NCBI GenBank assembly: GCA_964399335.1
Contig: CAYNQI010000006.1
Location: 1 to 32,704, forward strand
From: an uncultured Thermoplasmata archaeon
GTDB lineage: Archaea > Thermoplasmatota > Thermoplasmata > Halarchaeoplasmatales > Halarchaeoplasmataceae
Direction of reading: 5' to 3'
Length of the DNA: 32,704 nt
Part shown: in pieces, positions 12,733 to 30,532 of the stretch
Layout of the letters: every line of letters starts with the position of its first letter
Position numbering within the stretch: position 1 is the first letter of the stretch
Program-made: the position numbers and the translations under genes
The notes under the pieces: model-generated
What the model was told of the DNA's origin: nothing
What the model saw: only the letters and a program-made list of their open reading frames with translations
Databases searched by the model: none

Positions 12733-13584
12733 CTATCTATGTGTTTCTAGAAATGAATCTAGAGTGGTTCCAGAAGATTCCACATCGGATTCTTCTATCA
12801 CATTTAAGGCTTCGATTACGGGTGGTTTTTCTGCCTTTTGACTCTCCACTTCTCTCTCTGGAACTTGGTTTTCTAAACTAGAAAGGTTTTCGGATATTCC
12901 TATCGCATCTAAACCTATTTCATGGAAGAATTCATTTATGCATTCCATTTTAAGACGCTCTACGACCTTGTAAAGCATCTTCCCAGTCAATTCGAAACCC
13001 TCTTCAGGGCTTTTGTCGCCGTGTAAAAGTGTTTTGTCGTTCTCGAAAACGGTGATCGCATGACTTATCTCTGTCAAATTTTCAAGATATCCTTTGGCTT
13101 TATTATATCTATTTACTTCTGCAGAGAATGGCATCACAGCATAAGAAACTACCATCTTGTCATTTCGCTTAGCTAGATCTGCGATAACAGGCGCGGCTCC
13201 TGATCCAGTACCACCGCCTAGACCAGCTACTATAACCACAAAATCTGCTTCATCCATCGTTTTTAAGATCTGTTCTTCGTTGGTTAGAGCTGCTCTTTTA
13301 CCTATTTTTGGATCACCATTAGCACCATTACCATTTGTCAATTCTTTTCCGATCAACATCTGGCGATCGACATTCAGGTCTCCTAGAATGCTATCATCGG
13401 TGTTGATACCGATGGTTTTCACGTCATTCATATTTCGTTCGTTTATGTACTGTACTGTATTGCATCCACATCCACCTACACCGACAACATACACTTTGCT
13501 TTCGCGAAGCAAACCATTGATGAGTTCTTGTACGGTTCCTTCCATAGTATTTTCTTTTGGGGATTCGGGGCTTTTGTTTTTCAT
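12733..13584 (-). CDS. ftsZ: FtsZ/tubulin-superfamily GTPase, short form (283 aa): N-terminal GTP-binding domain and H7 present, canonical C-terminal domain missing, acidic tail ending in a CTP-like peptide
   Basis: VGVGGCGCN (G1) and GLGGGTGSGAAPVIADLAK (tubulin signature). ENDK and a degenerate T7-like NEFFHEI motif. The protein ends ~45 aa later with ...LDSFLETHR, which resembles the FtsZ DIPAFLR C-terminal peptide. Confidence 0.8.
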   Translation of the reverse strand: MKNKSPESPKENTMEGTVQELINGLLRESKVYVVGVGGCGCNTVQYINERNMNDVKTIGINTDDSILGDLNVDRQMLIGKELTNGNGANGDPKIGKRAALTNEEQILKTMDEADFVVIVAGLGGGTGSGAAPVIADLAKRNDKMVVSYAVMPFSAEVNRYNKAKGYLENLTEISHAITVFENDKTLLHGDKSPEEGFELTGKMLYKVVERLKMECINEFFHEIGLDAIGISENLSSLENQVPEREVESQKAEKPPVIEALNVIEESDVESSGTTLDSFLETHR

Positions 13585-13654: not shown

Positions 13655-14047
13655 TCACTTTTGCATGTATTTTTGCTCACTGGTTTTTTCAACTTCAAGG
13701 ATATTTTCTACTCTGTTGCTCATCTCACCTATGACTTCATATTGTGTCTTCAGTTCTTTGAGATCCTCTGTTAAAATCCCCTTTTGCACAAGCTGTTGGA
13801 TGGCTGTTTCCCAATCGTTAAAATGTCCAACAGCTATGAGATAGTGAACTATATTCTTTATTTTCTTGGGTAAAGTGATCTTAGCTGGTACTTCCCTTTC
13901 ATCTTTGCGGATGCTGTGTCTATTGATGTACTCTAGTGCGGCCTTCCTTAAGAAGGAGGACCGGTTACTGAAATCATGTCTTGCTATAAATGAATCGATG
14001 ATCTCAAGGTCTTCGTCTGACACCCGTAGGGATATTTTCTTTTCCAT
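13655..14047 (-). CDS. Ribbon-helix-helix (CopG/Arc-like) DNA-binding protein directly upstream of and co-oriented with ftsZ (CdrS-like position)
   Basis: The N-terminal ISLRVSDEDLEIIDSFIARHDFSNRSSFLRKAALEYI segment has the beta-alpha-alpha RHH pattern. 130 aa. Confidence 0.55.
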   Translation of the reverse strand: MEKKISLRVSDEDLEIIDSFIARHDFSNRSSFLRKAALEYINRHSIRKDEREVPAKITLPKKIKNIVHYLIAVGHFNDWETAIQQLVQKGILTEDLKELKTQYEVIGEMSNRVENILEVEKTSEQKYMQK

Positions 14048-14251
14048 ACTTTACACACCTTCTGTCCTTTTGATGTAGTACTTGTATTCCGAATGTATAT
14101 ACGGTATTAAGTAGGGCGTAGGACATAATACATATAATATTAAACCTATATAAAGATTTTCATCCCGACGATATGCGTACTAATAGGCGTATTTAACCTA
14201 ATATAGTAATACTATTGTCATACTTATTATCGTTATTCATTTACTGCTTAA

Positions 14252-14260
14252 CTATAAATA
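14252..14260 (+). promoter_or_regulatory. TATA-like box (CTATAAATA) ~40 bp upstream of the rubrerythrin ATG, with GGAG at -12
   Basis: Sequence motif only. Confidence 0.25.
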
Positions 14261-14298
14261 ACAGGATAAATTTCCTTCTACAAGGAGCGTAATATAAT

Positions 14299-14838
14299 AT
14301 GTTAAAAGTATTTAGATGCTGGATATGTGGTGAGACATATTTGGGTGAGGAAAAACCCACTGATTGTCCTTACTGTGGCGCGGACGAAGAGTTTTTGAAA
14401 CCCGGAGAGGAATACGAAGAACCCGATGTTGAATTGACAGAGGTTTCCAAGAAAAACTTAGAGAGTGCACTTGAGCTAGAAGTTGATAACGCTACTTTCT
14501 ATTATTGTGCTTACAATCAGGCTAAAGGACCGAAAACAGAAGGTATGTTCAAGAGGTTGGCAAAAGTCGAAGCTGAGCACGCGGAAGCGATATGCCTGTT
14601 CTTAGACAGGGAAGAACCGGACATCAACAAGAAATCCGATAACTGCTCACATCATCTACCCGACAATTTAGAGGACGCAAACAAGAGAGAAACAAGAGCC
14701 ATCGAACACTATAGGAAGTTCGCTTCCGAAGCCGAGGAACCTCGAGTTAAGGAATTCTTCGAGGCTTTAGTCGAGATAGAGAGCGATCATCTAGAACTGC
14801 ACGAAGGTGAGTTAGCTAAGTTGGAAGACACTCACTAA
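14299..14838 (+). CDS. Reverse-rubrerythrin-like protein (N-terminal rubredoxin-like Cys4 ribbon plus ferritin-like diiron domain)
   Basis: CWICG...CPYCG at the N-terminus, then two E...ExxH pairs (EAEHAEAI, EIESDHLELHE). Confidence 0.7.
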   Translation: MLKVFRCWICGETYLGEEKPTDCPYCGADEEFLKPGEEYEEPDVELTEVSKKNLESALELEVDNATFYYCAYNQAKGPKTEGMFKRLAKVEAEHAEAICLFLDREEPDINKKSDNCSHHLPDNLEDANKRETRAIEHYRKFASEAEEPRVKEFFEALVEIESDHLELHEGELAKLEDTH

Positions 14839-14841
14839 AAA

Positions 14842-14858
14842 CCTTTTTTTTCTTTATC
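14842..14858 (+). terminator. Oligo-T tract (CTTTTTTTTCTTT) just after the rubrerythrin stop
   Basis: Archaeal terminators are U-rich tracts. Motif only. Confidence 0.3.
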
Positions 14859-14900
14859 ATCCGGAAAATTTATTTCATAGTTCCCTTTCTACGAAACAAA

Positions 14901-14917
14901 GTAGCTTAGTTCGGCAG
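14901..14917 (+). repeat. 17-nt exact copy of tRNA-Thr positions 7-23 (GTAGCTTAGTTCGGCAG), 58 nt upstream of the intact gene, embedded in an imperfect hairpin
   Basis: Identical to 14976-14992. The flanking TAGTTCGG (14908-14915) can pair with CCGAACTG (14946-14953). Confidence 0.6.
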
Positions 14918-14969
14918 TACGTCAGAAAGGATTTCTAACTCACTACCGAACTGATCTATTAACACATAT

Positions 14970-15043
14970 GCCACCGTAGCTTAGTTCGGCAGAGCGGCTG
15001 ACTTGTAATCAGCAGGTCGGGGGTTCAAATCCCTCCGGTGGCT
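14970..15043 (+). tRNA. tRNA-Thr (anticodon UGU)
   Basis: Perfect cloverleaf: acceptor GCCACCG/CGGUGGC, D stem GCUU/GAGC, anticodon stem GCUGA/UCAGC with loop C-U-UGU-A-A, and T arm GGGGG-UUCAAAU-CCCUC. Confidence 0.9.
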
Positions 15044-15169
15044 CTCGAGATTTATTATATTACAAGTTAAAACCTTAGGCAAAGTTTTAAAATTAATAAA
15101 GCTTTAACTTTATTATCGATACATATGTAATTCATTAATTATAAGATTCAAAAATTGAATGAATCATTA

Positions 15170-15979
15170 CTATTCTAAATATTCACTGATATCATGATGG
15201 AAATCATTATCGATCTTTTCAAATACCATCTTTAACTTTTTGTTCTTTGGTGTACCTTTATTAAACTCTTCAAGATCCCAATTAATATAGGACCAATAAT
15301 CAGAATGTCGAGGTGGTGAAAAGGTCTTTTCCACAACAGCAACATCGAAGAGATTACAGTATTTACCTCTTGGTCGTTTGGTAGTTAAAGAAAGAGGGCG
15401 AAGATTAAACTCGATCACAAAAAGATCTATTAGATAGGCTGATATACTAAATCTTTCAGAAACATCGCTACCCTGACACCGTAGTATGGTCCTATTGTTT
15501 TTATTTTTCAATGATCTATATACTAATGATTTAACTGCAGAAGGAGTAATAAGAGTACTTAAATCACCTTTGTATTTGATACCTTGTCCTTCTTTTTCGG
15601 GAACTTTTAAACGCTCTATATCGCCTTTAGGTTTAGGATTTTCTTCATCGAATAACCTTAAGGATTCTTTGATATCAAAAAGGGAAACTTTGTTTTGTTT
15701 TAAAAGTTCTTTATGTACAACTACAGAATGATGTGTTGCAGCTTCTCTTCCAAGTTCATCCTCAGTAAAACCAAGTCTTGTCATCAATAAAAAAGGGGAT
15801 TTAGATCTGTTAAAAAACATGAAGGCCTCTTTATCCTGATAACCTAAGGATACGGGGATATATTCTTTGAACCATGGTTTGAAGTGTACAGGATTGACTT
15901 TTTCGGTAGCTGCAGAAGCATCTTCTTCATAACCAGCACCTTCAACGGGGAACCAAACGAAATGGTCTAGGGCTATCAT
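15170..15979 (-). CDS. Hypothetical protein (269 aa), first gene 3' of tRNA-Thr
   Basis: Long ORF co-oriented with the GTPase cluster. No recognisable motif. Confidence 0.55.
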   Translation of the reverse strand: MIALDHFVWFPVEGAGYEEDASAATEKVNPVHFKPWFKEYIPVSLGYQDKEAFMFFNRSKSPFLLMTRLGFTEDELGREAATHHSVVVHKELLKQNKVSLFDIKESLRLFDEENPKPKGDIERLKVPEKEGQGIKYKGDLSTLITPSAVKSLVYRSLKNKNNRTILRCQGSDVSERFSISAYLIDLFVIEFNLRPLSLTTKRPRGKYCNLFDVAVVEKTFSPPRHSDYWSYINWDLEEFNKGTPKNKKLKMVFEKIDNDFHHDISEYLE

Positions 15980-15995
15980 TTTCTACCTCTCTAAT

Positions 15996-17012
15996 TTAAA
16001 GCATCTTCCTTCCTTCACGTTTGAAATACTCCTCTAATTTCTCATTCGGATCAGAATAATCTTTACTCAAATCTCCTAAATGAGAGATAAATTTTTGGAA
16101 GTGTTTATATGGATATATATTCGATGTAAGTTCCTCATCTTCTACATTAACCCATTTCACACCGAGTTCTTGGTCTGCTGGTTTTACTCCGTTTTCACCA
16201 TCTACACCTGCCCAGCTGAAGAAGTACATTGCTTTATGTAGGTCAACACCTACAACTTTAGAACCTACTATGTTTTGATAAAGACCGGGAAGAAATGTTT
16301 TCAAAAGTTTCTCTCCATCTTCCCTTACTTCAACCTCATCATATCCTTTTTGTATATCTAATAGATCCCTCATACTATGGTTGGGGAACATATCGATTAT
16401 TTCTGGATCCATCATGTCCATTTTAGTGAAGAAAACTATCGGGTGTAATTCTTCAGATGTTTTATTAGCTTTATACTCCTCATAGCGTGATAAAATTTGA
16501 GACATCTCAGCATCATACCTTCGCATTGTAGTGCCTTTTTCACTCCTGATATCCTTTGTTAATTTAGAGCAATCAACTAGAATAACCATTATATTGCTGT
16601 TGAAAACTTCTTTGATCTTTTTTGTAACAGATTTATGATTACCAAATTCTTCGATCTCCTCACCTGACACATCGAATACAGTGAACATCAATTTATTCTC
16701 ATAATTAAATGCATTTTTAAGTCCACTTAAACCCTTTTCTGCTTTAATATGTTTAAAAACATCACTTTTTGTTGCCTCAAAATTCATCAAAAAACTCAAA
16801 GCTTGAAAATCTCCTCTAGCAGTTGCCCTTGGAAATTCACCAGCATGTAATCTATTTCGTATTTTATTGAGACAAACATCAGTCGTTTCAGGATCCATAT
16901 AATAAGCGAATTTTTTAGGATTCTTGATCGTATATTTTTCCATCGATTGATGTAAAAACCCAACTAACGTTGATTTTCCACAACCTCTGGTTCCTATTAT
17001 AGATACAGGCAT
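15996..17012 (-). CDS. P-loop GTPase-like protein (338 aa)
   Basis: N-terminal Walker A GTRGCGKST, a hhhhDxxG motif (FTVFDVSGEE), a Walker-B-like IMVILVDCS, and a TKMD G4-like motif (FFTKMD, compare NKxD/HKxD). Confidence 0.7.
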   Translation of the reverse strand: MPVSIIGTRGCGKSTLVGFLHQSMEKYTIKNPKKFAYYMDPETTDVCLNKIRNRLHAGEFPRATARGDFQALSFLMNFEATKSDVFKHIKAEKGLSGLKNAFNYENKLMFTVFDVSGEEIEEFGNHKSVTKKIKEVFNSNIMVILVDCSKLTKDIRSEKGTTMRRYDAEMSQILSRYEEYKANKTSEELHPIVFFTKMDMMDPEIIDMFPNHSMRDLLDIQKGYDEVEVREDGEKLLKTFLPGLYQNIVGSKVVGVDLHKAMYFFSWAGVDGENGVKPADQELGVKWVNVEDEELTSNIYPYKHFQKFISHLGDLSKDYSDPNEKLEEYFKREGRKML

Positions 17013-17081
17013 TTTCGTTCACCGAGCTGTAAACGTATTTTAATTATATATCATTTATGGTTATATCTCCATCAGAAAAGA

Positions 17082-17960
17082 TTATTTCCGAATCTCAGAA
17101 AGTATTTCTTTCTGAGTTTTTGATGTTTTTATTTTATTACCGATATAAGATATCATATCTATATATTGAAAATAGGGATAGATCAATACGTTTGGGTGAA
17201 GATCAAAAGGTTCAAATCCATCGGGTTTAGGATGTATTCTATGATGTTTATTGCTGACTATGGTATAGGTACTAAAAAAATAATTTGCCCCCGCCGTATT
17301 TTTTTTATTTATCAAATTCCAAGTTTTTGGAAGATTATTCTTCATTAAGATCATACCGGCCTTTCTTTTAACCTCTTCTTGGGAATCCTCTTTAGTAAAT
17401 ATTTTAAATATCAACTTTTTACCTTTATCTATTGGTAGATTTAAGACTATGAACATATAATTTTTAGAATTGGATCTTTGCTTAAAATATTCATTTAGTA
17501 ATATTGAAAGGTTTTTATCATAAAAACTATCAACCTTTGTAATATCTATAATAACCCCTAGTATCTCATCTTCTACGATCCTATCAAATCTTTCTGGTAA
17601 ACCGATTTTACCGAAATCATGCTGGCCAAAATTTATAATTCTAATCGAGGTTCTCTTCATGTCGTTATCTTTTGATTTATCTTTTTTTAATGCACTTCCT
17701 AAGTTTCTCATAAATTTATTTAACCCATTATACGGAAACCCAGCAATTAAACAGATTTCATCACCTTTGCTTAATCTTCTTTTAGTTTTAGAACCTAATC
17801 TATTCTCTTTTATGTGAAGTAATCTGAGGCTTTTAGAAGGTATATAAAAAGAGAAACCACTATTCTCATCTCTTACACTATATCTCTCCATAGATTTATG
17901 TAGGAGAACAGAAAACTCGTCGAACATTTTTTTCCTTAATGTGATTATAGACACGCCCAT
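17082..17960 (-). CDS. Degenerate paralogue of the upstream GTPase (pseudo-GTPase, P-loop lost)
   Basis: The N-terminus MGVSIITLRKKMFDEFSVLLHKSMERY aligns with MPVSIIGTRGCGKSTLVGFLHQSMEKY of the neighbour, but GKST is replaced. The later segments VIIDITKV and FIVLNLPID are also collinear. Confidence 0.6.
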   Translation of the reverse strand: MGVSIITLRKKMFDEFSVLLHKSMERYSVRDENSGFSFYIPSKSLRLLHIKENRLGSKTKRRLSKGDEICLIAGFPYNGLNKFMRNLGSALKKDKSKDNDMKRTSIRIINFGQHDFGKIGLPERFDRIVEDEILGVIIDITKVDSFYDKNLSILLNEYFKQRSNSKNYMFIVLNLPIDKGKKLIFKIFTKEDSQEEVKRKAGMILMKNNLPKTWNLINKKNTAGANYFFSTYTIVSNKHHRIHPKPDGFEPFDLHPNVLIYPYFQYIDMISYIGNKIKTSKTQKEILSEIRK

Positions 17961-17974
17961 AATATCATCTTTTT

Positions 17975-19480
17975 CTAAATAGTATAAATATCTCGTTCAT
18001 CTTTCTCTTCGACTTCAACCCTTTCCCCTATTTCTCCGAATAATTTATCTTTGTATTCTTTAAAGAACATATGAGGATGAGTACTCTTAGATATTCCTAC
18101 TTTCTCTTCTTCTAGTAAAATCCCGATTCCATAAAGACAGCCCAATATTGGAGAAGATGTGTGGATCTTTAGGACCTTAAAGTCTCCATTTGTATCAAGA
18201 TTGTTAAAATATTTTGCCTCCTCTATCTCCGAGAAGTTTTTGTTCCAATACTCCATATAATAAATAAAATTCTTTCTCCATTCAGGATCCGTCTGGAGGT
18301 AATCTACGATATCGTCTTCAAGACTTTGATCGTATTTAATTTCGTTCCGTATCTTTGTAAATAACTTTTTATTCCTTCTATTTTCTTTTATTATCTTAGC
18401 CCAGCCATCCTTTGAATCGAGTTCAAAAGTAGTATCTTTTTCCGCTTTATCTTCCATTACCTTTTCATCTGTATTTGAAGATTCCTCAGTTGATAAATTT
18501 TCAAAAGTTTGAACTTCTTGTTTCGGTCTTTTTTCCATAATGACCTGGTTTTCTTCTAATTCTTCTATCATATCTCTAAGCTCGTCTACAGAATTAGGAT
18601 CGTTTAGACGATGTTCAATCTCCACTGTATCTAACGTTCGACCTTGATATTCTAATAATGAATATTTTTTTCTGAGAAATATTAATTCTTTAATGTTTTC
18701 CTCGTATTCACTAAATAATTCTTCACCTTTATCAAGATCATCTTTAAGTGTATTGATTAATTTGTCTACCTGAAAACCTTCATCTCTCCAGTCTTTTGCT
18801 TTCATTAAAAGTTTCTTTTTCTTTTTCCTCCTTTTAATCTCCTTTTTAAGCTTTCTAACGATTCTTGAGGCCTTCTCTACCGAATCTGGATCGTTCAAGT
18901 ATTCTTCAATATTATCACTAAAAGCCATGTTGTATTTATCAAGAGGTAAAGATTGATATCTTTTTTTTACAATTTTTAATCTTTCAATTCTCTTATTATA
19001 TTCATCGATAAGGTCCTCACCTTTAGAGGGATTATTTTTTATCTTAGCTTTTAATCCAGAAACATCCCACCCTTCTTCTTCTAACTCTTTTAATTTGCTA
19101 AATAATTTCTTTAATCTCTTTTTTTTATCGATCTTCATTTTTAGTTTGTTGACTATCCTCGAGGCTTTTTTTACCGAATCAGGGTCATTCAGATATTCTT
19201 CGATATTTTCACTAAAAGCCAAATCGAATTCATTCAATTTTAAAGAATTATATCTCTTTTTAATAATCTTTAATCTTTTAATCCTTTTCTTATATTCCCT
19301 TATAAAGTCCTCACCTTTAGAAGGGTCATCCTCTATCTTATTTTTTAAACCAGAAACATCCCAACCATCGTTTTCCCAGTCTTTAATTATATCCAATAGT
19401 TTATTTATAGATTCTTCTCTTTTTCTTTCCTTTTCTCTATCCTCGGATATCTTATCTATGATTGGTTTTTTTTCTGACAT
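17975..19480 (-). CDS. Basic/acidic coiled-coil protein with three tandem ~85-aa repeats (EGWDVSGLK.KI...PSKGE..I.EY..RI.RLKI.KKRY.SL.L....AFS.NIEEYLNDPDSV.KASRIV.KLK)
   Basis: The repeats are visible at both protein and DNA level (~18.57-19.39 kb). No known domain recognised. Confidence 0.65.
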   Translation of the reverse strand: MSEKKPIIDKISEDREKERKREESINKLLDIIKDWENDGWDVSGLKNKIEDDPSKGEDFIREYKKRIKRLKIIKKRYNSLKLNEFDLAFSENIEEYLNDPDSVKKASRIVNKLKMKIDKKKRLKKLFSKLKELEEEGWDVSGLKAKIKNNPSKGEDLIDEYNKRIERLKIVKKRYQSLPLDKYNMAFSDNIEEYLNDPDSVEKASRIVRKLKKEIKRRKKKKKLLMKAKDWRDEGFQVDKLINTLKDDLDKGEELFSEYEENIKELIFLRKKYSLLEYQGRTLDTVEIEHRLNDPNSVDELRDMIEELEENQVIMEKRPKQEVQTFENLSTEESSNTDEKVMEDKAEKDTTFELDSKDGWAKIIKENRRNKKLFTKIRNEIKYDQSLEDDIVDYLQTDPEWRKNFIYYMEYWNKNFSEIEEAKYFNNLDTNGDFKVLKIHTSSPILGCLYGIGILLEEEKVGISKSTHPHMFFKEYKDKLFGEIGERVEVEEKDERDIYTI

Positions 19481-19646
19481 ATTGTCACCATAAGACCTTT
19501 ATTCATATCAATAATCTCTTAGGATAAAAAAATTTAGTCTATATCTCATTAATCTAAACATGTTAATTCCGTCCAATATCTATTTTATAAAGGAAAAAAA
19601 CTATATTATATTAATCTAATACCGAGCTGCAAAATAGGGTGGACAC

Positions 19647-20984
19647 ATGGCTAAAAGATGGAGAGATATAAAAAACGATAGTGATGACGTAGTTGCTAGG
19701 TTTTTAGAGCCAAATGACGTAAAAGGTATTACGAGTCAAGATATTATAATAGGTCCTAACGAAGCCGCTGTTATAATCGAACAAGGTAAAATAGAAGACG
19801 TTATTACTCAATCTAAACAAAAGAATTTTGGGACCAGTTTGTTAAAGCGTTTTGAAAATATAATTTTTGGATCTAAAGATTCGAGAATGCTATTTGTTGA
19901 TACGAGTCCTATTGATGTGACCGGGAAAATCAATAATATAGCAACAAAGGACAACGTTAGGCAGGATGGAATCTGTATGTTAAGATTCCAACTAGATGTT
20001 AACAACGCACATAAATTATTAAATCTGATTAAAAATAAAGACAAACTTACGATCAACAATATACGGGAAAAGATAAGCGATGAGATTACAGCCAATGTGT
20101 TTTCACCTTATATACACAAATATAACGTTGACGAATTTAAAGGGAATACTGATGTACAGGATGACATCGAAGAAGCAGCAATGGTAGAGATGAGAAAAAC
20201 TTTCGATATGTGGGGTTTGAATTTAATAAATCTTTCAACGAAATGGCATATCAGTAAACACGAGAAAGTTGAAAGGCAAGTTAAAGATGCTGAATTGGAT
20301 GAGAGAAAAAAGGATATAAGAACTGAAAAAGCTAAAGGGAAGATAAATAGGGAATACGATGTAAAATCCCATCTAGAACAAGAGCAGTATAACCAAAGAG
20401 ATCAACATATGGAACATAAACAGGATTTGGAATGGAAAAACATTAAATTTGAAAGAGATAAGCAAAAAACAGGAGTTGACCATCAAGAAGAGATCAAAAC
20501 TAGAAAGAAAAAAGGAGAGATCACTAGAGAAGAGATGGAATGGGAGATGGACAAAAAAGAGATGGAAAGAGCCTTGGACTGGAAGGATCGAATGAATAAA
20601 CAGAAAATGGAAAAAGAAGAACATGAAACAAAATTGGAGATAAATAAGTTTCAAGAAACTGAGTTAAAGGAGAAAGAAGTGGAAGCGGACGTTAAAAAAA
20701 CAAAAGCTCAGGTAGAGGCTGAGAAAGCAAAGCATAATTTAGAAACATATAAAGAAGCCGAAGACAGAGAAAGAAAACATCAATTAAACATGACTGGTCA
20801 GATGGCAAATTTGATGAATGCATCTAAACAGGATATGCCTAATACACTCGTTCAGGGAACTGATAAGACATCTACGAACATCCAAGACAATCAAAACCCT
20901 GGAAAAAAAGATTCGTGCCCAAATTGTGGATCAAATGTAGATAAAAATTGGCAGCATTGTCCAGACTGTGGAGAAGAAATATAG
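19647..20984 (+). CDS. Flotillin-like protein: SPFH/band-7 domain, long E/K-rich coiled coil, C-terminal Cys4 zinc ribbon
   Basis: SPFH-like N-terminal ~200 aa (IIIGPNEAAVIIEQGKI..., ATKDNVRQDGICMLRFQL, WGLNLINLS). Residues ~200-400 are a charged heptad-rich segment. Ends CPNCG...CPDCG. Confidence 0.65.
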   Translation: MAKRWRDIKNDSDDVVARFLEPNDVKGITSQDIIIGPNEAAVIIEQGKIEDVITQSKQKNFGTSLLKRFENIIFGSKDSRMLFVDTSPIDVTGKINNIATKDNVRQDGICMLRFQLDVNNAHKLLNLIKNKDKLTINNIREKISDEITANVFSPYIHKYNVDEFKGNTDVQDDIEEAAMVEMRKTFDMWGLNLINLSTKWHISKHEKVERQVKDAELDERKKDIRTEKAKGKINREYDVKSHLEQEQYNQRDQHMEHKQDLEWKNIKFERDKQKTGVDHQEEIKTRKKKGEITREEMEWEMDKKEMERALDWKDRMNKQKMEKEEHETKLEINKFQETELKEKEVEADVKKTKAQVEAEKAKHNLETYKEAEDRERKHQLNMTGQMANLMNASKQDMPNTLVQGTDKTSTNIQDNQNPGKKDSCPNCGSNVDKNWQHCPDCGEEI

Positions 20985-21014: not shown

Positions 21015-21560
21015 ATGTTTGAGAATTTAGCTCTGTATCCATATCCGAGCGTTATTCTTTTTACCAGCGGTATTATCTTATTGTTATTGTCAAATATGAC
21101 TATCGATGACAAAAAGTCAAGTGAAAATATATTAAATTTATTTGGACAATTTTTTGGTTTTTGTTGGGGGATAACAGCTTTAACTTGGGGTATCATAACA
21201 CTCGGTTCTCCAATATATACTGGTTGGATGGTTGGAGGCTTGATATTGGTTGGATTATCTTTATTTTTGAGACCTTTAAAAAATATTCCATGGGCTACTC
21301 TTGTTGGTTTAATTTTTTCAGGTGCGATAACAGCCTTTTTAGCTATGAATATGGATCCTGTAATCCATTTTGGCATAGATTTTAGGTGGATACTGGCTAT
21401 CGTCTTTCTAGCTGTTATGTTTATACTTTATTTAATATGTAAATTTATAGAAGACCTATTTGAATTAATAGGATTGATATTAAGTAATGATCCTATTTCT
21501 ATGTTGATCGGATTAGGATGTTTTATAGGAGGAATAGCTAGTTTAGTAATATATTATTAA
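21015..21560 (+). CDS. Small polytopic membrane protein (5 TM)
   Basis: Regular hydrophobic helices. Preferred over the antisense ORF 20891..21376, which has no membrane or domain signal. Confidence 0.55.
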   Translation: MFENLALYPYPSVILFTSGIILLLLSNMTIDDKKSSENILNLFGQFFGFCWGITALTWGIITLGSPIYTGWMVGGLILVGLSLFLRPLKNIPWATLVGLIFSGAITAFLAMNMDPVIHFGIDFRWILAIVFLAVMFILYLICKFIEDLFELIGLILSNDPISMLIGLGCFIGGIASLVIYY

Positions 21561-21644: not shown

Positions 21645-22154
21645 ATGGTATTAGGAACAGTAGTAGAGGGAGTAGCAAGGATAATCGTGAATTACACAGG
21701 TTATAAAAGAGGACAAGCAAAAGAGGATGATTTAGCAGTAAGGAAAAGACTGATGAGTGAACTTGATAAAAGTAAAAACAATCTTCGTAATTCATTAGAA
21801 TACATGTATGAAAATGAAAATAAAAAAAGTTCTAAAAAGATCAGAAAGGTTTTAGATGAGATTGATATGTTCTCAAATGAGGTTGATCTTTCAGAAACAG
21901 GTCATCACTATCCTTTTTTCGATCCTAAAAAAAGTATAAATGATAAAGATATCGAGCAGGTCGTAAAATTTGATAAAAAGATTTTAGATACTTGTATAAA
22001 CATCACTGAAGCCACTGAAGAAATACAGCAAAGACTCATCAGCGGAGTAAATATAGATTCTATTCAAGAGTTTAATAGTTTAAGACAATACATCACAAAA
22101 CTAAGAAACAAATATAAAGACCGTTTGGATTATATCAAAAAAATCGACACCTAA
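21645..22154 (+). CDS. Hypothetical charged protein (169 aa)
   Basis: ORF only. Confidence 0.45.
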   Translation: MVLGTVVEGVARIIVNYTGYKRGQAKEDDLAVRKRLMSELDKSKNNLRNSLEYMYENENKKSSKKIRKVLDEIDMFSNEVDLSETGHHYPFFDPKKSINDKDIEQVVKFDKKILDTCINITEATEEIQQRLISGVNIDSIQEFNSLRQYITKLRNKYKDRLDYIKKIDT

Positions 22155-22979: not shown

Positions 22980-24176
22980 TTATTCAAATATCCTCCTTAC
23001 CTCTTCCATCTTATACCCACATTCTACACAGCATTTCCATTCACTTTCTACTTTTGTTCCGCAACTTGGACAATATCTTACTCCCCCATCGATCTTCTCG
23101 CCCGTAAAAACACTATAATTTCTAGGGACTTTTAGATTTTTTTCTGCTACCTGTCTAATTATAGAATCATCTATTTTCTTTTTGCCATTACCTATATCAG
23201 ACCTAACAGCAACAGAATTATCCAATTGTGTACTGCCACTTTCTCCTGAACCTCCAATATTAGACCTTAAAGCTACTGAATCTTTAAGTTGGGTAGCCCC
23301 TTCCCCCAATTTTTCTTTCACTTTATCTCCTTTGACCAGATCTCCGTTTACCTTATCACCTTGTATCTGTTCTCCTATCTCTACCTTTGTCTCTCTAAAA
23401 TGGACAGCATCAACCCGTCTATAGTTGGTATTTTTCTGTGCCTTACCTTTTAGAATGTACGTCAATGGTATAGACAGGTTCATGATCTCTTTCCAGTCGT
23501 TAGATGAATCCACTTGATTTATGGTCCATTCGATACATGATCTGATAGGTTCCTCATCATATCCTTCACCTATCAAAAGCAAACTTTCTAAAGCTAAAGC
23601 TGTGACTTTTTCTTTATTTATCCACCCCCTCTCTGTTCGTTCCTTTTTATAATGGTCTTTTTTGATAGAGTTCTTTAAGAAATCAGCTGTTAATGATAAT
23701 TGAGCAGGTTCTGCATAAGAATAAAATAAAGCTTGTAATGCGTAAGAACTCACCCAAACTTTTTCGTACCAGCTTCCATTAGGATACCTTTTCTGTAACA
23801 ATACATCTGCAATATTAGGATAGCTGATACCATACTTACCCAGTGCTTTTATTATCAAAGAATCCAGCCATATCTGGTTTGTCCACCCATTTCTTTTTTT
23901 TTCCTTTTCCAGTATTTTGATATAGTTTTTCATATCGCTCTCAGTATAACCAAGTTCTTTTGCAGATAATAGAAAGTATGAGATCGAGATAGTATCCATA
24001 TCTAACATGAATTTAGCTTCCGTCTTTTTTAATAATTCTTCAGCTATCTCTTCTTCGATACAAGATAAAAGCCGTATACCTGAACTTATGTACCTAATAT
24101 CATTAGATTCGTAAAGGCATGATAAATCAAATGTATTAAAATTCCTCTCTAAGCAATTTACAACTTCTTTTTTCAT
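22980..24176 (-). CDS. Alpha/alpha-toroid (prenyltransferase/terpene-cyclase-like) repeat protein with a G/S-rich duplicated linker and a C-terminal Cys4 zinc ribbon
   Basis: Repeats of the form NGW....D..II.AL..YG, NGSW....VSSYALQALFY and RGW....ALALESLLLIG. Duplicated TQL(K/D).SVA(L/V)RS(N/D)IG segment. Ends CPSCG...CVECG. Confidence 0.55.
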   Translation of the reverse strand: MKKEVVNCLERNFNTFDLSCLYESNDIRYISSGIRLLSCIEEEIAEELLKKTEAKFMLDMDTISISYFLLSAKELGYTESDMKNYIKILEKEKKRNGWTNQIWLDSLIIKALGKYGISYPNIADVLLQKRYPNGSWYEKVWVSSYALQALFYSYAEPAQLSLTADFLKNSIKKDHYKKERTERGWINKEKVTALALESLLLIGEGYDEEPIRSCIEWTINQVDSSNDWKEIMNLSIPLTYILKGKAQKNTNYRRVDAVHFRETKVEIGEQIQGDKVNGDLVKGDKVKEKLGEGATQLKDSVALRSNIGGSGESGSTQLDNSVAVRSDIGNGKKKIDDSIIRQVAEKNLKVPRNYSVFTGEKIDGGVRYCPSCGTKVESEWKCCVECGYKMEEVRRIFE

Positions 24177-26050
24177 TTAACAGCCTCCTCCGATAGAGCT
24201 TTTAGATTTAAAGATAATTTCATAATATCTCTTTTCCTAGACCCAACCTGATTACTTAATTCTCTTTTCAACCATTGAACTACATTATCATTTTTATATC
24301 CTATGCTATTTAAGCAATCATATATGATTGCGGTGGCCTTCACGTTATCGGTTTGTTTACATTCCCAATGGTTTTCTTTCAATAAAATTTTCAGTTGACT
24401 CAATTCTTTACTTGCATCTAAACCAGATATAATTAAACACTCAACAATATATGCTATCACCCATGAGGGAGTAAATTCACTTATCCTATTACGGAGCTTT
24501 TCAGCGAGTTCCTTTTTTTCCAATTCCTCTCCACCCAATTTACTCATAACAGAAAGTGCATAAGCAGATATCCAAAGTTGTTCATCCTCTAATATACCAC
24601 CTCTTAGTTGATCCATAACTTTCTTGGCATTTTGTCTATATATTTCTCTTTCTGTTTCTTCATAGATGAATAAGGTTTCTAATAATAGAAGTGTATGGTA
24701 AAATTTAGACCCAGAATATTTTTTCAAAAGAGTATTTACCAATTCTTCACATCTTATTTTTTCCATCGTTGGATTACATTTCATTAAAGCTAACAACGAA
24801 TTGGCATACTCTTTATAACTTATCGTATAAGATTGCTGGATTGCTTTTTCTAACATTTCATAGGCTTCTTTAATATCCTCATCCCATTCAATCTCTTTTC
24901 TTACTTCTTCTTTTTCAACAAATTTAAATTTAATTTTACTTTCTGGAAGTGGTTTTTTCTCATAATCTTCCATAGTAGCCCCGAAAAGTTCTGATACGTA
25001 TTGATCCTTTTTCTTTGAGAAAAGATGTATCTGCCAATCAGCTAGGTTTCTCTTATGTTTTAAAAATCTTTTCAAAGGTTTGATCTGTTTTTCGTATCCC
25101 ATTTCCTTGATCTCGGGTTTTAACCAGTCAAAAAATGCTTTTATAACCTCTATAGTAGAAGAGTCTGATACATTTTTATAATGAAAGCACCTTTTCATAT
25201 CTCTCTTTATAAAGAAACTAGAAGACATACCATTTTTAATAGCTTTGTTTCTGTTATGACCTATATTTATATTTGGTACCCATTTGACTTTATCCAATTT
25301 TACAGTTAACGTTCGAAACAAAGCTGCATAAGCTACTGTAAGAGGGATATATGGATGGGTATCTAATAAACGTATTTCCAAAGTTGGTTTATATTCATCT
25401 GAGGCCTTACATTTTTGGGTAAAGGGAGATAGGTCGTAATACCTGCTTTTTTTCCTTTTTTCCTCATAAGAGTTTTCATATTCAAAACAAGAAAGATACC
25501 CTCTTTTAATATCTTCTTCGTTAAGGTATGGTGCAGGTTTTATGTTTGGATTTACCCTTTTTGAAGGATCATAAGTATCCATACTGGCCCTAACAGACTT
25601 CCATTTCGTGATATGATTGTCATGGATCGGTGAATTAGAACTTAAAGCAAATATTTCTGGAACAAAGATTCTGAGAAAATTATTGAGTCTCAATTTTCTC
25701 TTATCAGAATTTGCATCGATATGATGCTGTTCTGCAAAATATTCTCCAACTCTACCCTTAGTATGAGGGTTCGCAGCTGTTCCAATTAAGAATAGGTCAC
25801 ACTCACGGGCTGCTTCGTTTACAACTTCTCTCAGTTCTATCAGTTGTTCCTCAAGTTCTTCTAAAGTTTCACAGGTATCAGTAGCTATTTCCAGTTGGGA
25901 CTGGTATTTATCTTTATATATACCACCTTTTCCAAATTCATAATATTTATCTGGTACTTTATCTAATATCTTTGGGACTTCGTAAACCAGGTGCCCATTT
26001 TCATTTACTACTTGTATTTCCTGCTCAACACCGTGTTTCAAATCTATCAC
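24173..26050 (-). CDS. GCS2/YbdK-type carboxylate-amine ligase fused to C-terminal alpha/alpha-toroid repeats (625 aa)
   Basis: N-terminal ~370 aa carry the glutamate-cysteine-ligase-family-2 pattern (HGVEQEIQVV..., EIATDTCETLEE..., FLIGTAANPHT). The C-terminal ~250 aa carry repeats such as QLWISAYALSVMSKLGG. A 4-nt ATGA overlap joins it to the downstream gene. Confidence 0.6.
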   Translation of the reverse strand: MIDLKHGVEQEIQVVNENGHLVYEVPKILDKVPDKYYEFGKGGIYKDKYQSQLEIATDTCETLEELEEQLIELREVVNEAARECDLFLIGTAANPHTKGRVGEYFAEQHHIDANSDKRKLRLNNFLRIFVPEIFALSSNSPIHDNHITKWKSVRASMDTYDPSKRVNPNIKPAPYLNEEDIKRGYLSCFEYENSYEEKRKKSRYYDLSPFTQKCKASDEYKPTLEIRLLDTHPYIPLTVAYAALFRTLTVKLDKVKWVPNINIGHNRNKAIKNGMSSSFFIKRDMKRCFHYKNVSDSSTIEVIKAFFDWLKPEIKEMGYEKQIKPLKRFLKHKRNLADWQIHLFSKKKDQYVSELFGATMEDYEKKPLPESKIKFKFVEKEEVRKEIEWDEDIKEAYEMLEKAIQQSYTISYKEYANSLLALMKCNPTMEKIRCEELVNTLLKKYSGSKFYHTLLLLETLFIYEETEREIYRQNAKKVMDQLRGGILEDEQLWISAYALSVMSKLGGEELEKKELAEKLRNRISEFTPSWVIAYIVECLIISGLDASKELSQLKILLKENHWECKQTDNVKATAIIYDCLNSIGYKNDNVVQWLKRELSNQVGSRKRDIMKLSLNLKALSEEAVK

Positions 26051-26606: not shown

Positions 26607-27389
26607 CTAGAAGGGTTTCTCGTAGTCCTCGTAGATGACATCCTGCCGTAAGTTATTCAATTCCTCTTCAATTTCCGCCTTTTTCTGAGTTATACTTTCA
26701 GAAGCATCTTTGTATGTTTCTAAATCAATTTTTTCATCTGCAAGTTGTTCAGCAAGTGAAGTCTTTTTATCATCTAAGCTTTTTATTTCTTCTAAAGATT
26801 CGTTGTACACTTCATATTTGTTTTTTAGCTCGTTTAATAGATTTTCAGCCTTATCAATATCCATATTTTTAATTGCATCAATTATAGGTCTTTTATCTAT
26901 CATACTTTCCCTTTCTTCTAATGAAGATACTTCACCTTCTATCTTCTCTATTTTATCTGTGATCTTATTTCTTTCTTTGATTAGAGAGTTTGCCTCTTCA
27001 AAATTTCTGTTATCGATCATCCTCTCAATATCACTCGTTTTCATATACCTAGTAGACTCTTTTAATTCGTCTAATTTACTATCTAATTTGACTAATTTTT
27101 CAGCAATCGATAGACCTGCAAAAGTAGATGATTTTGGTTTAGACAATTTTTGAGGCTTTTTAGGGATAGGTCTTTTTTTATCAGTTGCCTCAAAACCCTC
27201 TTTTCTTTGTTTAACTAGTTCATTAGCACGCCCATATAATCCCTCCTTTAATGCCTCTTCGATATCACTTACGTCTTTTCCTTCTCTTTTCAATTGAGAT
27301 AACTGTTCTTCTAAAGATTTAATCCATGGGATAAATCCTCCCCGGATATTGATAAGCTGCTCAGCAGTAGTGTAATCTCCACTCATCAT
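26607..27389 (-). CDS. Paralogue P1 of the 'YEDYxKPF-tail' family: soluble coiled-coil N-terminus plus the conserved C-terminal module (MID.R motif duplicated)
   Basis: C-terminal ~105 aa are collinear with P2-P5: ...MIDKRPI...LAEQLADEKIDLETY...LRQDVIYEDYEKPF. Confidence 0.7.
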   Translation of the reverse strand: MMSGDYTTAEQLINIRGGFIPWIKSLEEQLSQLKREGKDVSDIEEALKEGLYGRANELVKQRKEGFEATDKKRPIPKKPQKLSKPKSSTFAGLSIAEKLVKLDSKLDELKESTRYMKTSDIERMIDNRNFEEANSLIKERNKITDKIEKIEGEVSSLEERESMIDKRPIIDAIKNMDIDKAENLLNELKNKYEVYNESLEEIKSLDDKKTSLAEQLADEKIDLETYKDASESITQKKAEIEEELNNLRQDVIYEDYEKPF

Positions 27390-27599: not shown

Positions 27600-27932
27600 T
27601 TGTTAGACAAACATCACAGTTTGATGAACTTGATATCATTGATAGTAATTTTGTATCTTCTTATGATAAATTTTTCTTCATTTTTGTTGTTCGGGATAGA
27701 TAAGTATAAAGCAAAAAATAATAAAAGAAGAATATCCGAGAAAAATCTTTTTTTCCTGTCTTTTATAGGTGGCATTTTTGGATCTCTATTAGGTATGAAA
27801 ACATACAGACATAAAACTAAGAAATTGAGCTTCAATACTGCTATCTTTTTCTTGTTAATATGGAACTTTTTCATATACCTAATCATAATAGACCAGTTAT
27901 TTTATGAGATAATCAAGTTCATACCTATTTAA
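27600..27932 (+). CDS. DUF1294-family small membrane protein
   Basis: FGIDKYKAKNNKRRISEKNL...GGIFGSLLGMKTYRHKTKK.SF matches the DUF1294 DK.A...RI.E..L..GG..G...HKT.K pattern. In bacteria this domain is often fused to a cold-shock domain. Confidence 0.6.
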   Translation: MLDKHHSLMNLISLIVILYLLMINFSSFLLFGIDKYKAKNNKRRISEKNLFFLSFIGGIFGSLLGMKTYRHKTKKLSFNTAIFFLLIWNFFIYLIIIDQLFYEIIKFIPI

Positions 27933-28043: not shown

Positions 28044-29123
28044 TCAAAACGGTTTCTGGTAATCTTCATAGATGACCTCATGTCTTAGTTTGTTCAACCT
28101 CTCTTCTAGATCAGCCTTCTTGTGCTCTATACTTTGGACGGCGTCATAGTATGTGTTTTTATCTATTTCATAATCAGCTAACTTTTGAGCTAAAGAGCTT
28201 TTCTTATCATCTAGCGTTTCCAATTCCACTATCGTTTCTTTGTATTCCCGATACTTTTCTTCCAAACCTGATAAAAGTTCTCCAGCCTTCTTTACATCAC
28301 CTTCATCTAAAGCTGAATCGATACCTCTTGTATCTATCATACGTTCATCTTCCTTGAGTTGAGAGATCGTCTTTTTTATATCACTCAAGGAATTATATGC
28401 TTTCCTATCTTTACTAATTTCTTCAATTGTTTTACTTTTTTTCTGAGCAGTTTTTACTTTTTTACTTCGTCTGACCCATACAGTCTTATCTATAGATTTT
28501 TCGAATCCTACCTGATTTTGGTAAATTATTTTCAGATCGAGAGATGAGTTTTCTCTTGTTGTTTTTCCTTTCATATACACCTTATTAACCCTATTTTCTC
28601 CAGCTTTCAATATATCTATTGCTGAATCTTGTCGGATCTCTGTCCCTCCTTCAGATCGAATACGGATATTGAATGCATCGTGGTTTCCTAAATTGGAGAT
28701 GATTATGTCTTCCCTTGTCCACTTCTCCGGACGGAGTTCTATATTTTCAACTTCAACTTCTAAATCTGGGAAGGCCCTCCATATCCTTTCCCTATCTTTT
28801 AAAGTTCTAAATATCTGCTCCGTATTTTTGTCTCTTGCAGAATGCCCAAGACCTTTTCCTCTAAATATGATTATACTCTTTTTTGTTTTTATCTCGATAT
28901 ATTTGGGGTTCATCCATATATCAAATAAGTTCATTTCGATATGTTCTATCTCTGAAGGATGAATTCTTATATTTTGTTTCTTTCCATGATATCTTATCTC
29001 GTGTCCGATTATCAATGTTCCCTTATCTGGTACCGGGGATCCCCATCCTTCTAGGCCCTCTTTTTCTTTTTGGGTATAAAAACGAACACTTTCAAACCGA
29101 GATTCATTTAATTTACTCTTCAT
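28044..29123 (-). CDS. Paralogue P2: soluble N-terminus (possible bacterial-PH-like fold) plus the conserved C-terminal module
   Basis: ...ERMIDTRGID...LAQKLADYEIDKNTY...LRHEVIYEDYQKPF. Its last 34 nt, stop codon included, are identical to P3. Confidence 0.7.
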   Translation of the reverse strand: MKSKLNESRFESVRFYTQKEKEGLEGWGSPVPDKGTLIIGHEIRYHGKKQNIRIHPSEIEHIEMNLFDIWMNPKYIEIKTKKSIIIFRGKGLGHSARDKNTEQIFRTLKDRERIWRAFPDLEVEVENIELRPEKWTREDIIISNLGNHDAFNIRIRSEGGTEIRQDSAIDILKAGENRVNKVYMKGKTTRENSSLDLKIIYQNQVGFEKSIDKTVWVRRSKKVKTAQKKSKTIEEISKDRKAYNSLSDIKKTISQLKEDERMIDTRGIDSALDEGDVKKAGELLSGLEEKYREYKETIVELETLDDKKSSLAQKLADYEIDKNTYYDAVQSIEHKKADLEERLNKLRHEVIYEDYQKPF

Positions 29124-29398: not shown

Positions 29399-30532
29399 TC
29401 AAAACGGTTTCTGGTAATCTTCATAGATGACCTCTTTGCGAAGCCTGTTTAATTCTTCCTCAAGATCTGACTTTCTCCATCTTACACTCTCACTAGCATC
29501 ACTATAAGTTTTTCTATCGATCTCACCGTCAGCTAATTTCTCGGCCAATCTACTCTTTCTATCATCTAATTTACCTAACTGTTTTAATGTATCCTTATAC
29601 TTTTCATAGTTTTCTTTGAGATCATTAAAAAGTTCCTCCGCTTCCTCTACTTTATTTTCTTCTAGGAGAGTTTCTATTTCTCGGGTATCGATCATTTTTT
29701 CTTCTTCTTTTAAAAAATCGATCTCTTTATTTAATCTCTCTTTTTTCTCGCTTATACTTTCTTTAAAGCTTTCTTTTGATAAAGGTGGTGGCATCGGCTG
29801 GTTATCTTTACTTGAAGTTCTTTGATCCTCTTCTGATCTTGTTGGAAATGGTTGGTCATAAGAGTTAGGTTTTGATGGTTGTTGTTGCCATCGTGCTCGC
29901 TGTCTATCATATCCATATTGCATTCTCTCTGGCATTGATTTAGTTGTATATATTGTTCCAAAAGCTACTAAATTTAATATCCCAGCGGCTATGGACATGA
30001 ACCAAGAATATGTTCCACCCCATGACAAATGAAAATTAGAACCATAAATATCCTCATTACTCGATCCGAAGAAGCTTTCATGGGGACCAGATTCGGAACT
30101 GTAAAATTCCTCTTCATTCCAAGCATCAGGTAGTGAAACCATCATATAGACAGGCGCTATCAAAGCAATAATGAAACCGATTAGTACAAGTACAGCACCG
30201 ACTTTTGGAGACAATTTCCCTGTAGCTACAATAAATGCCCCTACACTTCCAAGAGCAGTAAAGAAAATGGAGATCATTACGAATATTTTAGACATATTTA
30301 ATACGTCTGCGGGTTCAAAATCCTCTGGATATTCATCTCTCTCAGTATCTGTACCGTCATAATCCTCCGATGAAATTTCCATCTCATCAAAATATAAATC
30401 AAGGCTAGTAGCTCTATCATCATCTTCTGGTTCAATACTGTAATTATACCAAGGTAGTAAGAAAGTAAATGAAAGGAGTACTAATGCAACAATTGTTAAT
30501 CCTAATCCAGCAACTACTTTCTTTTTTACCAT
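29399..30532 (-). CDS. Paralogue P3: N-terminal signal/TM region, D/E-rich segment, three further TM helices, P-rich linker, then the conserved C-terminal module
   Basis: ...EKMIDTREIE...LAEKLADGEIDRKTY...LRKEVIYEDYQKPF. Confidence 0.7.
   Translation of the reverse strand: MVKKKVVAGLGLTIVALVLLSFTFLLPWYNYSIEPEDDDRATSLDLYFDEMEISSEDYDGTDTERDEYPEDFEPADVLNMSKIFVMISIFFTALGSVGAFIVATGKLSPKVGAVLVLIGFIIALIAPVYMMVSLPDAWNEEEFYSSESGPHESFFGSSNEDIYGSNFHLSWGGTYSWFMSIAAGILNLVAFGTIYTTKSMPERMQYGYDRQRARWQQQPSKPNSYDQPFPTRSEEDQRTSSKDNQPMPPPLSKESFKESISEKKERLNKEIDFLKEEEKMIDTREIETLLEENKVEEAEELFNDLKENYEKYKDTLKQLGKLDDRKSRLAEKLADGEIDRKTYSDASESVRWRKSDLEEELNRLRKEVIYEDYQKPF

Follow-up and report, generated by a model that had tools for sequence, protein, structure and literature searches.

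We analysed a 32,704-nucleotide stretch of DNA from an uncultured Thermoplasmata archaeon (hereafter the window; contig CAYNQI010000006.1 of assembly GCA_964399335.1), in which a four-gene operon on the minus strand lies head to head with a gene for an SPFH (Band 7) protein on the plus strand. The window encodes ribosomal protein S8e, SRP19, an archaeal tRNA-splicing endonuclease and PcrB/GGGP synthase, and its DNA is therefore archaeal. We tentatively read the region as encoding a GTP-gated, multi-protein switch that belongs to the double-GTPase (DO-GTPase) type and represents a divergent, as yet undescribed archaeal form of it. The proteins are designated W269 to W501, related loci elsewhere, whose proteins were compared by BLAST, carry L numbers, and the features of the cluster are as follows, in window coordinates:

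14970-15044, plus strand: tRNA-Thr(TGT), the cluster boundary, 125 bp from the end of W269
15170-15979, minus strand: W269 (269 residues), open reading frame; two-domain protein of an undescribed family
15996-17012, minus strand: W338 (338 residues), open reading frame; active-type GTPase as judged by its motifs
17082-17960, minus strand: W292 (292 residues), open reading frame; predicted pseudo-GTPase paralogue of W338
17975-19480, minus strand: W501 (501 residues), open reading frame; scaffold- or sensor-like protein with variable N-terminal repeats and a conserved C-terminal domain
17978-18403, minus strand: W501-C, the conserved C-terminal domain of W501 (about 130-140 residues), from an alignment of seven proteins
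18521-19420, minus strand: three tandem helical repeats of about 98 residues in W501 (about residues 21-320), from the DNA repeat and protein alignment
19481-19646: AT-rich 166-bp spacer between the divergent operons
19647-20984, plus strand: W445 (445 residues), with an SPFH (Band 7) domain at residues 34-231, an E/K-rich coiled coil at about 201-400 and a Cys4 zinc ribbon at 423-445
21015-21560, plus strand: W181, polytopic membrane protein by hydropathy, encoded 3' of the SPFH gene
21645-22154, plus strand: W169 (169 residues), conserved and without a match to any described family

The minus-strand operon runs in the order W501-W292-W338-W269, with intergenic gaps of 14, 69 and 16 bp, and the AT-rich spacer presumably holds the two divergent promoters. 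An initial annotation of the region had described a GTPase, a degenerate tandem paralogue and a repeat protein, divergently paired with an SPFH/zinc-ribbon protein. These elements are all present; overlooked were the fourth operon gene, W269, which lies within the part that it covered, and W169, which lies outside it.

The evidence for a GTPase switch begins with W338. A motif scan located a Walker A motif of the form GxxxxGK[ST] (G1, GTRGCGKST, residues 7-15), the sequence DVSGE at 114-118, a TKMD G4 motif at 196-199 and a G5-like serine, S266. Across 12 relatives that share 29-76% identity, G7, G12, K13, P61, T64, D114, G117 and D199 are invariant, and S14, E118 and S266 are invariant or nearly so. 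Because they are conserved in such diverse relatives, the G1, DVSG and TKMD motifs, which the initial annotation had already pointed out, are not chance matches. T64, part of an FPxAT motif together with P61, is the putative switch-I threonine. The best Pfam family for W338 is DO-GTPase2 (33.0 bits against a gathering threshold of 27), accompanied by a weak match to G-alpha; among 67 near-full-length relatives, 39 match DO-GTPase2 and 18 match DO-GTPase1 (E ≤ 0.01). Given that these matches are weak throughout, we place the W338 family at the margin of the DO-GTPase superfamily, as a clade of its own. It is also a small one: an exhaustive profile search of 1.84 billion representative proteins gave 84 members at E ≤ 1e-3, and a word-indexed search of 5.8 billion clusters gave 7.

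An AlphaFold2 model of W338, built from the 67-sequence alignment, was compared with known structures (an alignment of 7 sequences gave an unusable model, with a predicted local distance difference test score of 48). The matches, with the two values of each comparison in brackets, were YcjX-GDP (6nz4; 14.8, 237), an Asgard RagA-like GTPase (8yl2; 11.9, 174), Ski7 (10.5, 182) and RagD (10.3, 169), followed at lower ranks by EF-Tu, SR-beta, Arf/Arl, G-alpha, atlastin and others; in the Foldseek ranking, YcjX came second. All of the listed structural matches are GTPases, and the possibility that W338 belongs to a kinase or ATPase fold was not borne out. Searches against PDB sequences returned nothing beyond P-loop matches. 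Taken together, motifs and modelled fold identify W338 as a TRAFAC-class GTPase, a divergent member of the DO-GTPase/YcjX-like group that is predicted to bind and hydrolyse GTP.

Its neighbour W292 is, by sequence, a catalytically dead paralogue of W338, as the initial annotation had supposed. The two proteins align over their full length (BLASTP E 1e-7), and a profile-profile comparison of their respective groups (hhalign) gave a probability of 99.96% and an E value of 3.8e-39. The motif scan of W292 found neither G....GK[ST] nor DxxG, and the switch-I threonine is lost; a TKED remnant, which had gone unremarked, persists at the G4 position (residues 189-192). Besides the window, L004, L008, L011 and L017 have a second GTPase paralogue, so that the expected co-occurrence of the two genes in other loci is observed, and these copies show graded decay: the L011 protein (298 residues) retains an intact P-loop and has lost Walker B, the L008 protein (314 residues) has GEKNTGRST and TKVD, and the P-loop is wholly lost in W292 and its orthologues in L004 (283 residues) and L017 (291 residues). 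The recurrence of such a paralogue in five loci, at different stages of decay, shows that the pseudo-GTPase partner is an evolutionarily stable state.

In every locus examined, the gene directly after the active GTPase gene encodes a domain of the W269 family, and the start codon of this gene and the stop codon of the GTPase gene overlap in L014, L020 and L022. W269 has no match in Pfam, NCBIfam, PADLOC, PHROGs or PDB sequences, and homologous-protein searches with the single sequence or a profile returned only W269 itself and one relative. An alignment of the homologues nevertheless defines a set of invariant residues (H6, F7, G16, D74, R78 and H84). The family occurs in three arrangements. 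It forms a protein by itself in the window, L008, L019/L020 and L022, with a separate HerA-like gene following it in L008. In L004 (837 residues), L014 (856 residues) and L017 (820 residues), the domain continues through a long charged linker into a C-terminal classical AAA domain, which is closest to the D2 domain of Cdc48/VAT (E 4e-51). In L011 (612 residues), and apparently in L021, it is joined to the C terminus of a HerA/DUF87 ATPase.

The closest relative of the window system, L017, has a GTPase 76% identical to W338 and a W269 domain 63% identical over 269 residues, after which the linker and AAA domain follow. The W269 reading frame of the window ends exactly at this domain boundary, 125 bp short of tRNA-Thr, and no remnant of an AAA or HerA domain was found anywhere in the window. 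In L017, the W269-AAA gene is followed by a DUF1294 gene and a gene for an EDYQKPF-domain protein, the window homologues of which lie 6-12 kb away on the opposite side of the cluster. In addition, 26 nucleotides at positions 14901-14926, 75 nucleotides upstream of the intact tRNA gene, repeat the 5' half of tRNA-Thr with 85% identity and may be a recombination scar next to the point at which W269 lacks its AAA domain. The position of the reading-frame end, the displaced L017 neighbours and the partial tRNA copy together suggest that a rearrangement beside tRNA-Thr removed the ATPase part of the window gene. Because stand-alone W269 genes exist in other lineages, the window protein may still be functional.

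The first gene of the operon, W501, was confirmed to hold three tandem repeats; an alignment of all three gives a period of 98 residues rather than the roughly 85 first proposed. At the DNA level, the 294-nucleotide units at 18777-19070 and 19071-19364 are 72% identical. L004, L008, L011, L017 and L020 encode homologues upstream of their GTPase genes; in L014 the distance upstream is about 7 kb. Their N-terminal parts vary, comprising three, two or one of the 98-residue repeats, HEAT/adaptin-N-like repeats (L020) or other sequence, and the W501-C domain of about 130 residues is common to all of these upstream partners (seven proteins from seven loci). Assignments of W501 as a SPO22, MatP or helix-turn-helix protein were rejected as sub-threshold matches to low-complexity sequence.

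On the other side of the spacer, W445 passes the Pfam gathering thresholds both for Band_7 (26.4 bits against 23.6) and for Zn_ribbon_3 (29.6 bits against 27), which upholds the SPFH assignment. The coiled-coil region (36% E+K over residues 201-400) and the Cys4 ribbon (cysteines 424, 427, 438 and 441) are likewise as first described. The label 'flotillin-like' is loose, in that W445 has no hydrophobic segment or membrane anchor by hydropathy and no flotillin domain in Pfam. Orthologues of W445 occur in L004 (54% identity, with a precomputed Band_7 match at E ≤ 1e-5) and in L008 (38% identity; a short form with a sub-threshold score of 13.8 bits), and those of W169 in the same two loci (L004_179, 52%; L008_167, 58%). 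W169 has no significant match in Pfam or the PDB, and neither it nor its orthologues match PspA_IM30 or Snf7; a PIN-domain assignment was discarded (20.3 bits against a threshold of 21.9, with no match in the orthologues). W181 has no sequence homologues among the related loci, in each of which the SPFH gene nevertheless has a gene for a small, non-homologous membrane protein as its neighbour. Transmembrane segments are predicted for none of the six conserved proteins.

The proposed link between the SPFH gene and the GTPase operon is supported by its recurrence in four independent loci with differing arrangements. Genes of the W501, W292, W338, W269, W445 and W169 types occur together in three divergent loci, in different orders: in the window both the SPFH gene and that for W169 point away from the operon, in L004 they converge on it from downstream, and L008 has its SPFH gene some 3 kb downstream and W169 divergently oriented upstream. 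The fourth locus is that of P0030, a distant relative of W338 (profile E 2e-27) on the 13.9-kb contig ERZ27301951, in which a 506-residue Band_7 and zinc-ribbon gene and an adjacent 172-residue gene lie between two apparent GTPase operons. These have gene sets of 508/325/466 and 546/334/456 residues, the second operon being recognized from gene sizes only, and the contig may represent a duplicated system around a shared SPFH module. The L008/L010 contig (GCA_964507665.1, CAZDPT010000021.1) was the sole match among species-representative genomes. Bacterial markers are absent from this 8-kb contig, which belongs to a metagenome-assembled genome labelled 'Candidatus Saccharibacteria', and its six genes of the module share 38-58% identity with their archaeal counterparts; mis-binning or horizontal transfer may explain the label. 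A metagenome scan with a narrower alignment gave four loci. The SPFH and W169 genes are absent from the available flanks of L011, L014, L020 and L022, which are more distant, and are thus accessory. We conclude that the core of the system consists of W501-C, the GTPase or GTPases and W269, and that the SPFH/zinc-ribbon protein and W169 form a recurrent accessory module.

In the switch system that we propose, W338 and W292 would form a heterodimer of an active and a pseudo-GTPase, the nucleotide state of which would be read or set by W269, acting in the position and role that GAP1 has in DO-GTPase systems. This likeness to GAP1 is drawn because the W269 gene always lies downstream of the GTPase gene, overlaps it at the start codon in three loci and is fused to ATPases in relatives. 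W269 would also be the output adaptor through which the switch gates a motor or effector, which in the relatives would be the fused, hexameric Cdc48-like AAA+ unfoldase or HerA/FtsK-like translocase. With the ATPase part missing here, output in the window would need another route, either the SPFH/W169 module or an ATPase whose gene lies elsewhere. W501 could serve as a scaffold or sensor, its constant C-terminal domain docking to the core and its repeat region varying. The SPFH/zinc-ribbon protein would act as a sub-membrane platform that W181 or a similar small membrane protein recruits, mirroring the recruitment of PspA by YdjI/SamI, and together with W169 would make up the membrane-proximal platform of the system. 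The most likely role, towards which we lean slightly, is a membrane-proximal response to envelope stress, possibly one triggered by infection. We lean this way because the structure closest to that of the GTPase is YcjX, the SPFH protein resembles YdjI, housekeeping genes flank the cluster, PADLOC gives no match and no classical toxic effector is present.

Several observations weigh against a DO-GTPase-type switch. The hidden Markov model scores for DO-GTPase are marginal, reaching a maximum of about 36 bits over the whole W338 family. Eight members of the W269 family have no Pfam match at E ≤ 10 and no detected similarity to GAP1. Pfam includes GAP1 models. The GAP1 analogy is one of gene position and fusions only, and W501 has no match in Pfam to the GASH or FNIII domains. 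The ATPase of the closest relatives is missing from the window, which may hold a reduced or decaying copy of the system, and the four more distant loci have no SPFH or W169 gene in their flanks. Finally, physical interaction, GTP binding and membrane association are predictions.

The same components could instead constitute an antiviral or conflict system, a possibility that we consider rather unlikely. The repeat protein would sense an invader, the GTPase pair would set a threshold and W269 would deploy the ATPase effector to bring about abortive infection or containment, with the SPFH protein as accessory effector or anchor. The DO-GTPase family to which W338 shows homology is itself predicted to act in conflicts, and a constant core surrounded by variable parts (three, two or one repeats, or HEAT repeats; an AAA, a HerA or no ATPase) is in keeping with such a role, as are the rarity and patchiness of the family (84 clusters in 1.84 billion proteins) and the possible presence of several copies per community or genome. 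The L014 copy also lies beside primase-polymerase, ArdC-N and Cas4-like genes. However, the conflict role of DO-GTPases is no more than a prediction, none of the components matches PADLOC, and the loci examined contain no nuclease, TIR, SLATT, peptidase or other typical effector. The window has housekeeping flanks and no integrase or transposase, and the SPFH and W169 proteins evolve at the rate of the GTPase, as expected of stable partners in a complex.

Wider searches provide context for these points. No component had a significant match in PADLOC, NCBIfam or PHROGs, no homologues were found in plasmid or phage collections or in IMG/VR, and there was no significant viral fold match. We rejected an integrated element at tRNA-Thr: no integrase was found, and the 3' end of the tRNA is not directly repeated at any plausible distal boundary. 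In GC content, the cluster is not distinct from the downstream flank. An 18-nucleotide, 89% match to the T-arm/3' part of tRNA-Thr (15022-15039) within the W292 gene (17209-17226) delimits no sensible island and is probably due to chance. The L014 pair of GTPase and W269-AAA genes (13666-19165 of a 41.9-kb contig) has as its neighbours an SNase, a Cas4-like PD-(D/E)xK protein, a primase-polymerase (NrS1-1-like) and an ArdC-N protein, surroundings that look like a mobile-element or viral context.

We also considered membrane remodelling of the kind performed by PspA or by the endosomal sorting complex required for transport (ESCRT), and judge it improbable. W169 would then be a cryptic ESCRT-III/PspA polymer, recruited by the SPFH/zinc-ribbon protein and disassembled by the W269-fused AAA+ ATPase, with the GTPase pair in a regulatory role. 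The combination of SPFH domain, coiled coil and zinc ribbon occurs in Meth_adaptin ESCRT loci and in the Bacillus subtilis pspA-ydjGHI operon; W169 is small and apparently helical, the relatives carry a classical AAA domain and the L020 upstream protein has HEAT/adaptin-N-like repeats. Yet W169 and its orthologues match neither Snf7, PspA_IM30 nor any PDB sequence, the fused AAA domain is nearest to Cdc48/VAT D2 and not to Vps4, no MIT domain was detected in it, and the window has no Vps4 or ESCRT-III gene.

A still simpler account, that two unrelated operons lie side by side and that the recurrence of the SPFH, W181 and W169 genes reflects synteny among close genomes, is very unlikely. It would accommodate the lack of SPFH and W169 in the four more distant loci, and the window, L004 and L017 do share other neighbours (DUF1294 and EDYQKPF-domain proteins), indicating some general synteny. 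Against this, gene order and orientation differ between the window, L004 and L008, the L008 GTPase is only 50% identical, and the P0030 contig, at roughly 25% identity or less, again pairs a Band_7 and zinc-ribbon gene with a gene of 172 residues. A Rag/Gtr-like GTPase pair, active in nutrient- or trafficking-type signalling on a membrane scaffold, would account for the paired subunits and for the resemblance of TKMD to the HKMD G4 motif, but it is largely refuted and highly improbable, because both Rag subunits bind nucleotide and W292 has no P-loop, and because DO-GTPase is the best profile family, with no match to Gtr1/RagA.

Several further features of the window and its relatives accompany the cluster. 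Across tRNA-Thr from it lies a gene for a short, 283-residue FtsZ/tubulin-family protein (12733-13584, minus strand; Pfam Tubulin E 1e-38), which adjoins a ribbon-helix-helix gene (13655-14047, minus strand). Tubulins are effectors in some bacterial DO-GTPase (GAP1-N2) systems; the tubulin gene of the window is not kept in the related loci. Beyond W169, a 398-residue protein (22980-24176, minus strand) has a C-terminal zinc ribbon that is 42% identical over 24 residues to that of W445, and its gene overlaps by 4 bp a GCS2-family (glutamate-cysteine ligase-like) gene of 625 residues (24173-26050, minus strand). Zinc-ribbon tails occur on several unrelated proteins of these loci, for example that encoded at 695-1630 in L004. 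Five paralogues follow on the minus strand (26607-27389, 28044-29123, 29399-30532, 30951-32018 and 32159-32575), with variable N termini, some containing transmembrane segments, and a common C-terminal domain of about 110 residues that ends in (V/I)xYEDY(Q/E/A)KPF. None of the five has a Pfam match; this EDYQKPF domain might be SHOCT-like. Genes with the domain also directly adjoin the GTPase operons of L004 (2-676) and L017 (6221-6385). A DUF1294 small membrane protein is encoded near the operon in three loci (window 27600-27932, plus strand; L004 1741-2016, minus strand; L017 5816-6118, minus strand). In L004 and L017 its gene adjoins the operon, and in the window it lies about 5 kb from W169; its recurrence could be due to synteny among relatives or mark an additional linked component. 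Related contigs are named SL_8KL_010_SED, which we take to denote soda-lake sediment metagenomes.

DO-GTPase systems have so far been predicted from comparative genomics only, the sole experimental exception being the structure of the orphan YcjX. The compact, delimited clade described here makes the logic of GTPase switch, adaptor and effector directly testable, and the module joins two themes that have been treated separately, namely DO-GTPase switches and sub-membrane assemblies of the SPFH, PspA and ESCRT types. A bolder version, which we consider doubtful, is that the locus encodes a new archaeal machine, in which the GTPase heterodimer and W269 would control both the assembly of an SPFH platform and a hexameric ATPase motor in membrane remodelling or defence. 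Its components W269, W501-C and W169 belong to no described family, and W269 would be a new regulator or adaptor fold. If the partners have new folds or a function like that of GTPase-activating proteins or guanine nucleotide exchange factors, they would represent a new mode of archaeal GTPase regulation; if they are not novel in fold or function, the system would be a rare, lineage-specific variant of a predicted one.

Set against known systems, the module is not a Rag/Gtr pair, a flotillin system, a canonical ESCRT locus or a Psp locus. Unlike Rag/Gtr, it has no roadblock-domain match, one subunit, W292, has neither P-loop nor DxxG and would be unable to bind nucleotide, and both sequence and structure favour DO-GTPase/YcjX; the resemblance to Rag/Gtr raised in the initial annotation is at the level of the fold only. 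The accompanying claim that such a module had not been described in archaea was overstated, in that the GTPase falls within the DO-GTPase superfamily and the SPFH, coiled-coil and zinc-ribbon combination is known from YdjI/SamI and from Meth_adaptin loci. As for the nearest structure, YcjX is paired with the membrane protein YcjF, and is not known to be paired with a pseudo-GTPase, W269 or an SPFH protein. YcjX (PDB 6nz4; Tsai et al. 2019) is also larger (about 465 residues) and only 12% identical to W338, without a match at the sequence level.

Archaeal Meth_adaptin ESCRT loci include an SPFH, coiled-coil and zinc-ribbon protein, as the window does, and an AAA+ ATPase (Makarova et al. 2024, PMC10936438). 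These loci, for which no GTPase is reported, are defined by Vps4 (with its MIT domain), ESCRT-III and adaptin-appendage/GOLD proteins, none of which was found in the window. In B. subtilis, YdjI/SamI, encoded in the pspA-ydjGHI operon, is recruited by membrane proteins and localizes PspA (PMC8581546; bioRxiv 10.64898/2026.02.06.704340). The YdjI system has no GTPases, and the window has no recognizable homologue of PspA/ESCRT-III, YdjG or YdjH. The match to W445 is one of architecture: both are SPFH proteins that lack an anchor, contain a coiled or low-complexity stretch and end in a zinc finger, and in both cases genes for small membrane proteins and for a small protein, helical or apparently so, lie alongside, YdjI acting as a recruited sub-membrane platform.

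The closest parallels are with the DO-GTPase/GAP1 systems. DO-GTPases are defined as TRAFAC GTPases with a Walker-B glutamate, frequently present as two paralogous copies (Kaur et al. 2020, PMC7159879; Pfam PF19993, PF19975); GAP1 is 'typically encoded downstream of a DO-GTPase gene', co-evolves with the GTPase and carries fused effectors, and the conflict-system role of these GTPases is a prediction (PMC7159879). The systems are ternary: GAP1, with N1 or N2, M and C domains, is joined by a helical GASH protein in the N1 type and by an FNIII-repeat protein in the N2 type. A link between DO-GTPases and SPFH proteins is not reported in PMC7159879 or in the 2024 PSP paper (PMC11237479), the literature on the gene combination itself not having been searched. 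The window system differs in its marginal profile scores, which suggest a separate small clade, in having one predicted catalytically dead paralogue, and in GTPases without N-terminal zinc ribbons or transmembrane segments; W269 and W501 take the places of GAP1 and GASH, but W269 and W501-C have no detectable similarity to GAP1, GASH or FNIII, and the outputs are AAA+/HerA ATPases and an SPFH module, in contrast to the calcineurin, TIR, SLATT, peptidase, tubulin and HSP70 outputs of those systems. It resembles them in its TRAFAC GTPase with a Walker-B glutamate (DVSGE, in which E118 is nearly invariant), its two side-by-side paralogous GTPase genes, a constant gene directly downstream that is able to bear variable fused output domains, an additional helical or repeat protein, predicted membrane-proximal action and rarity in archaea.

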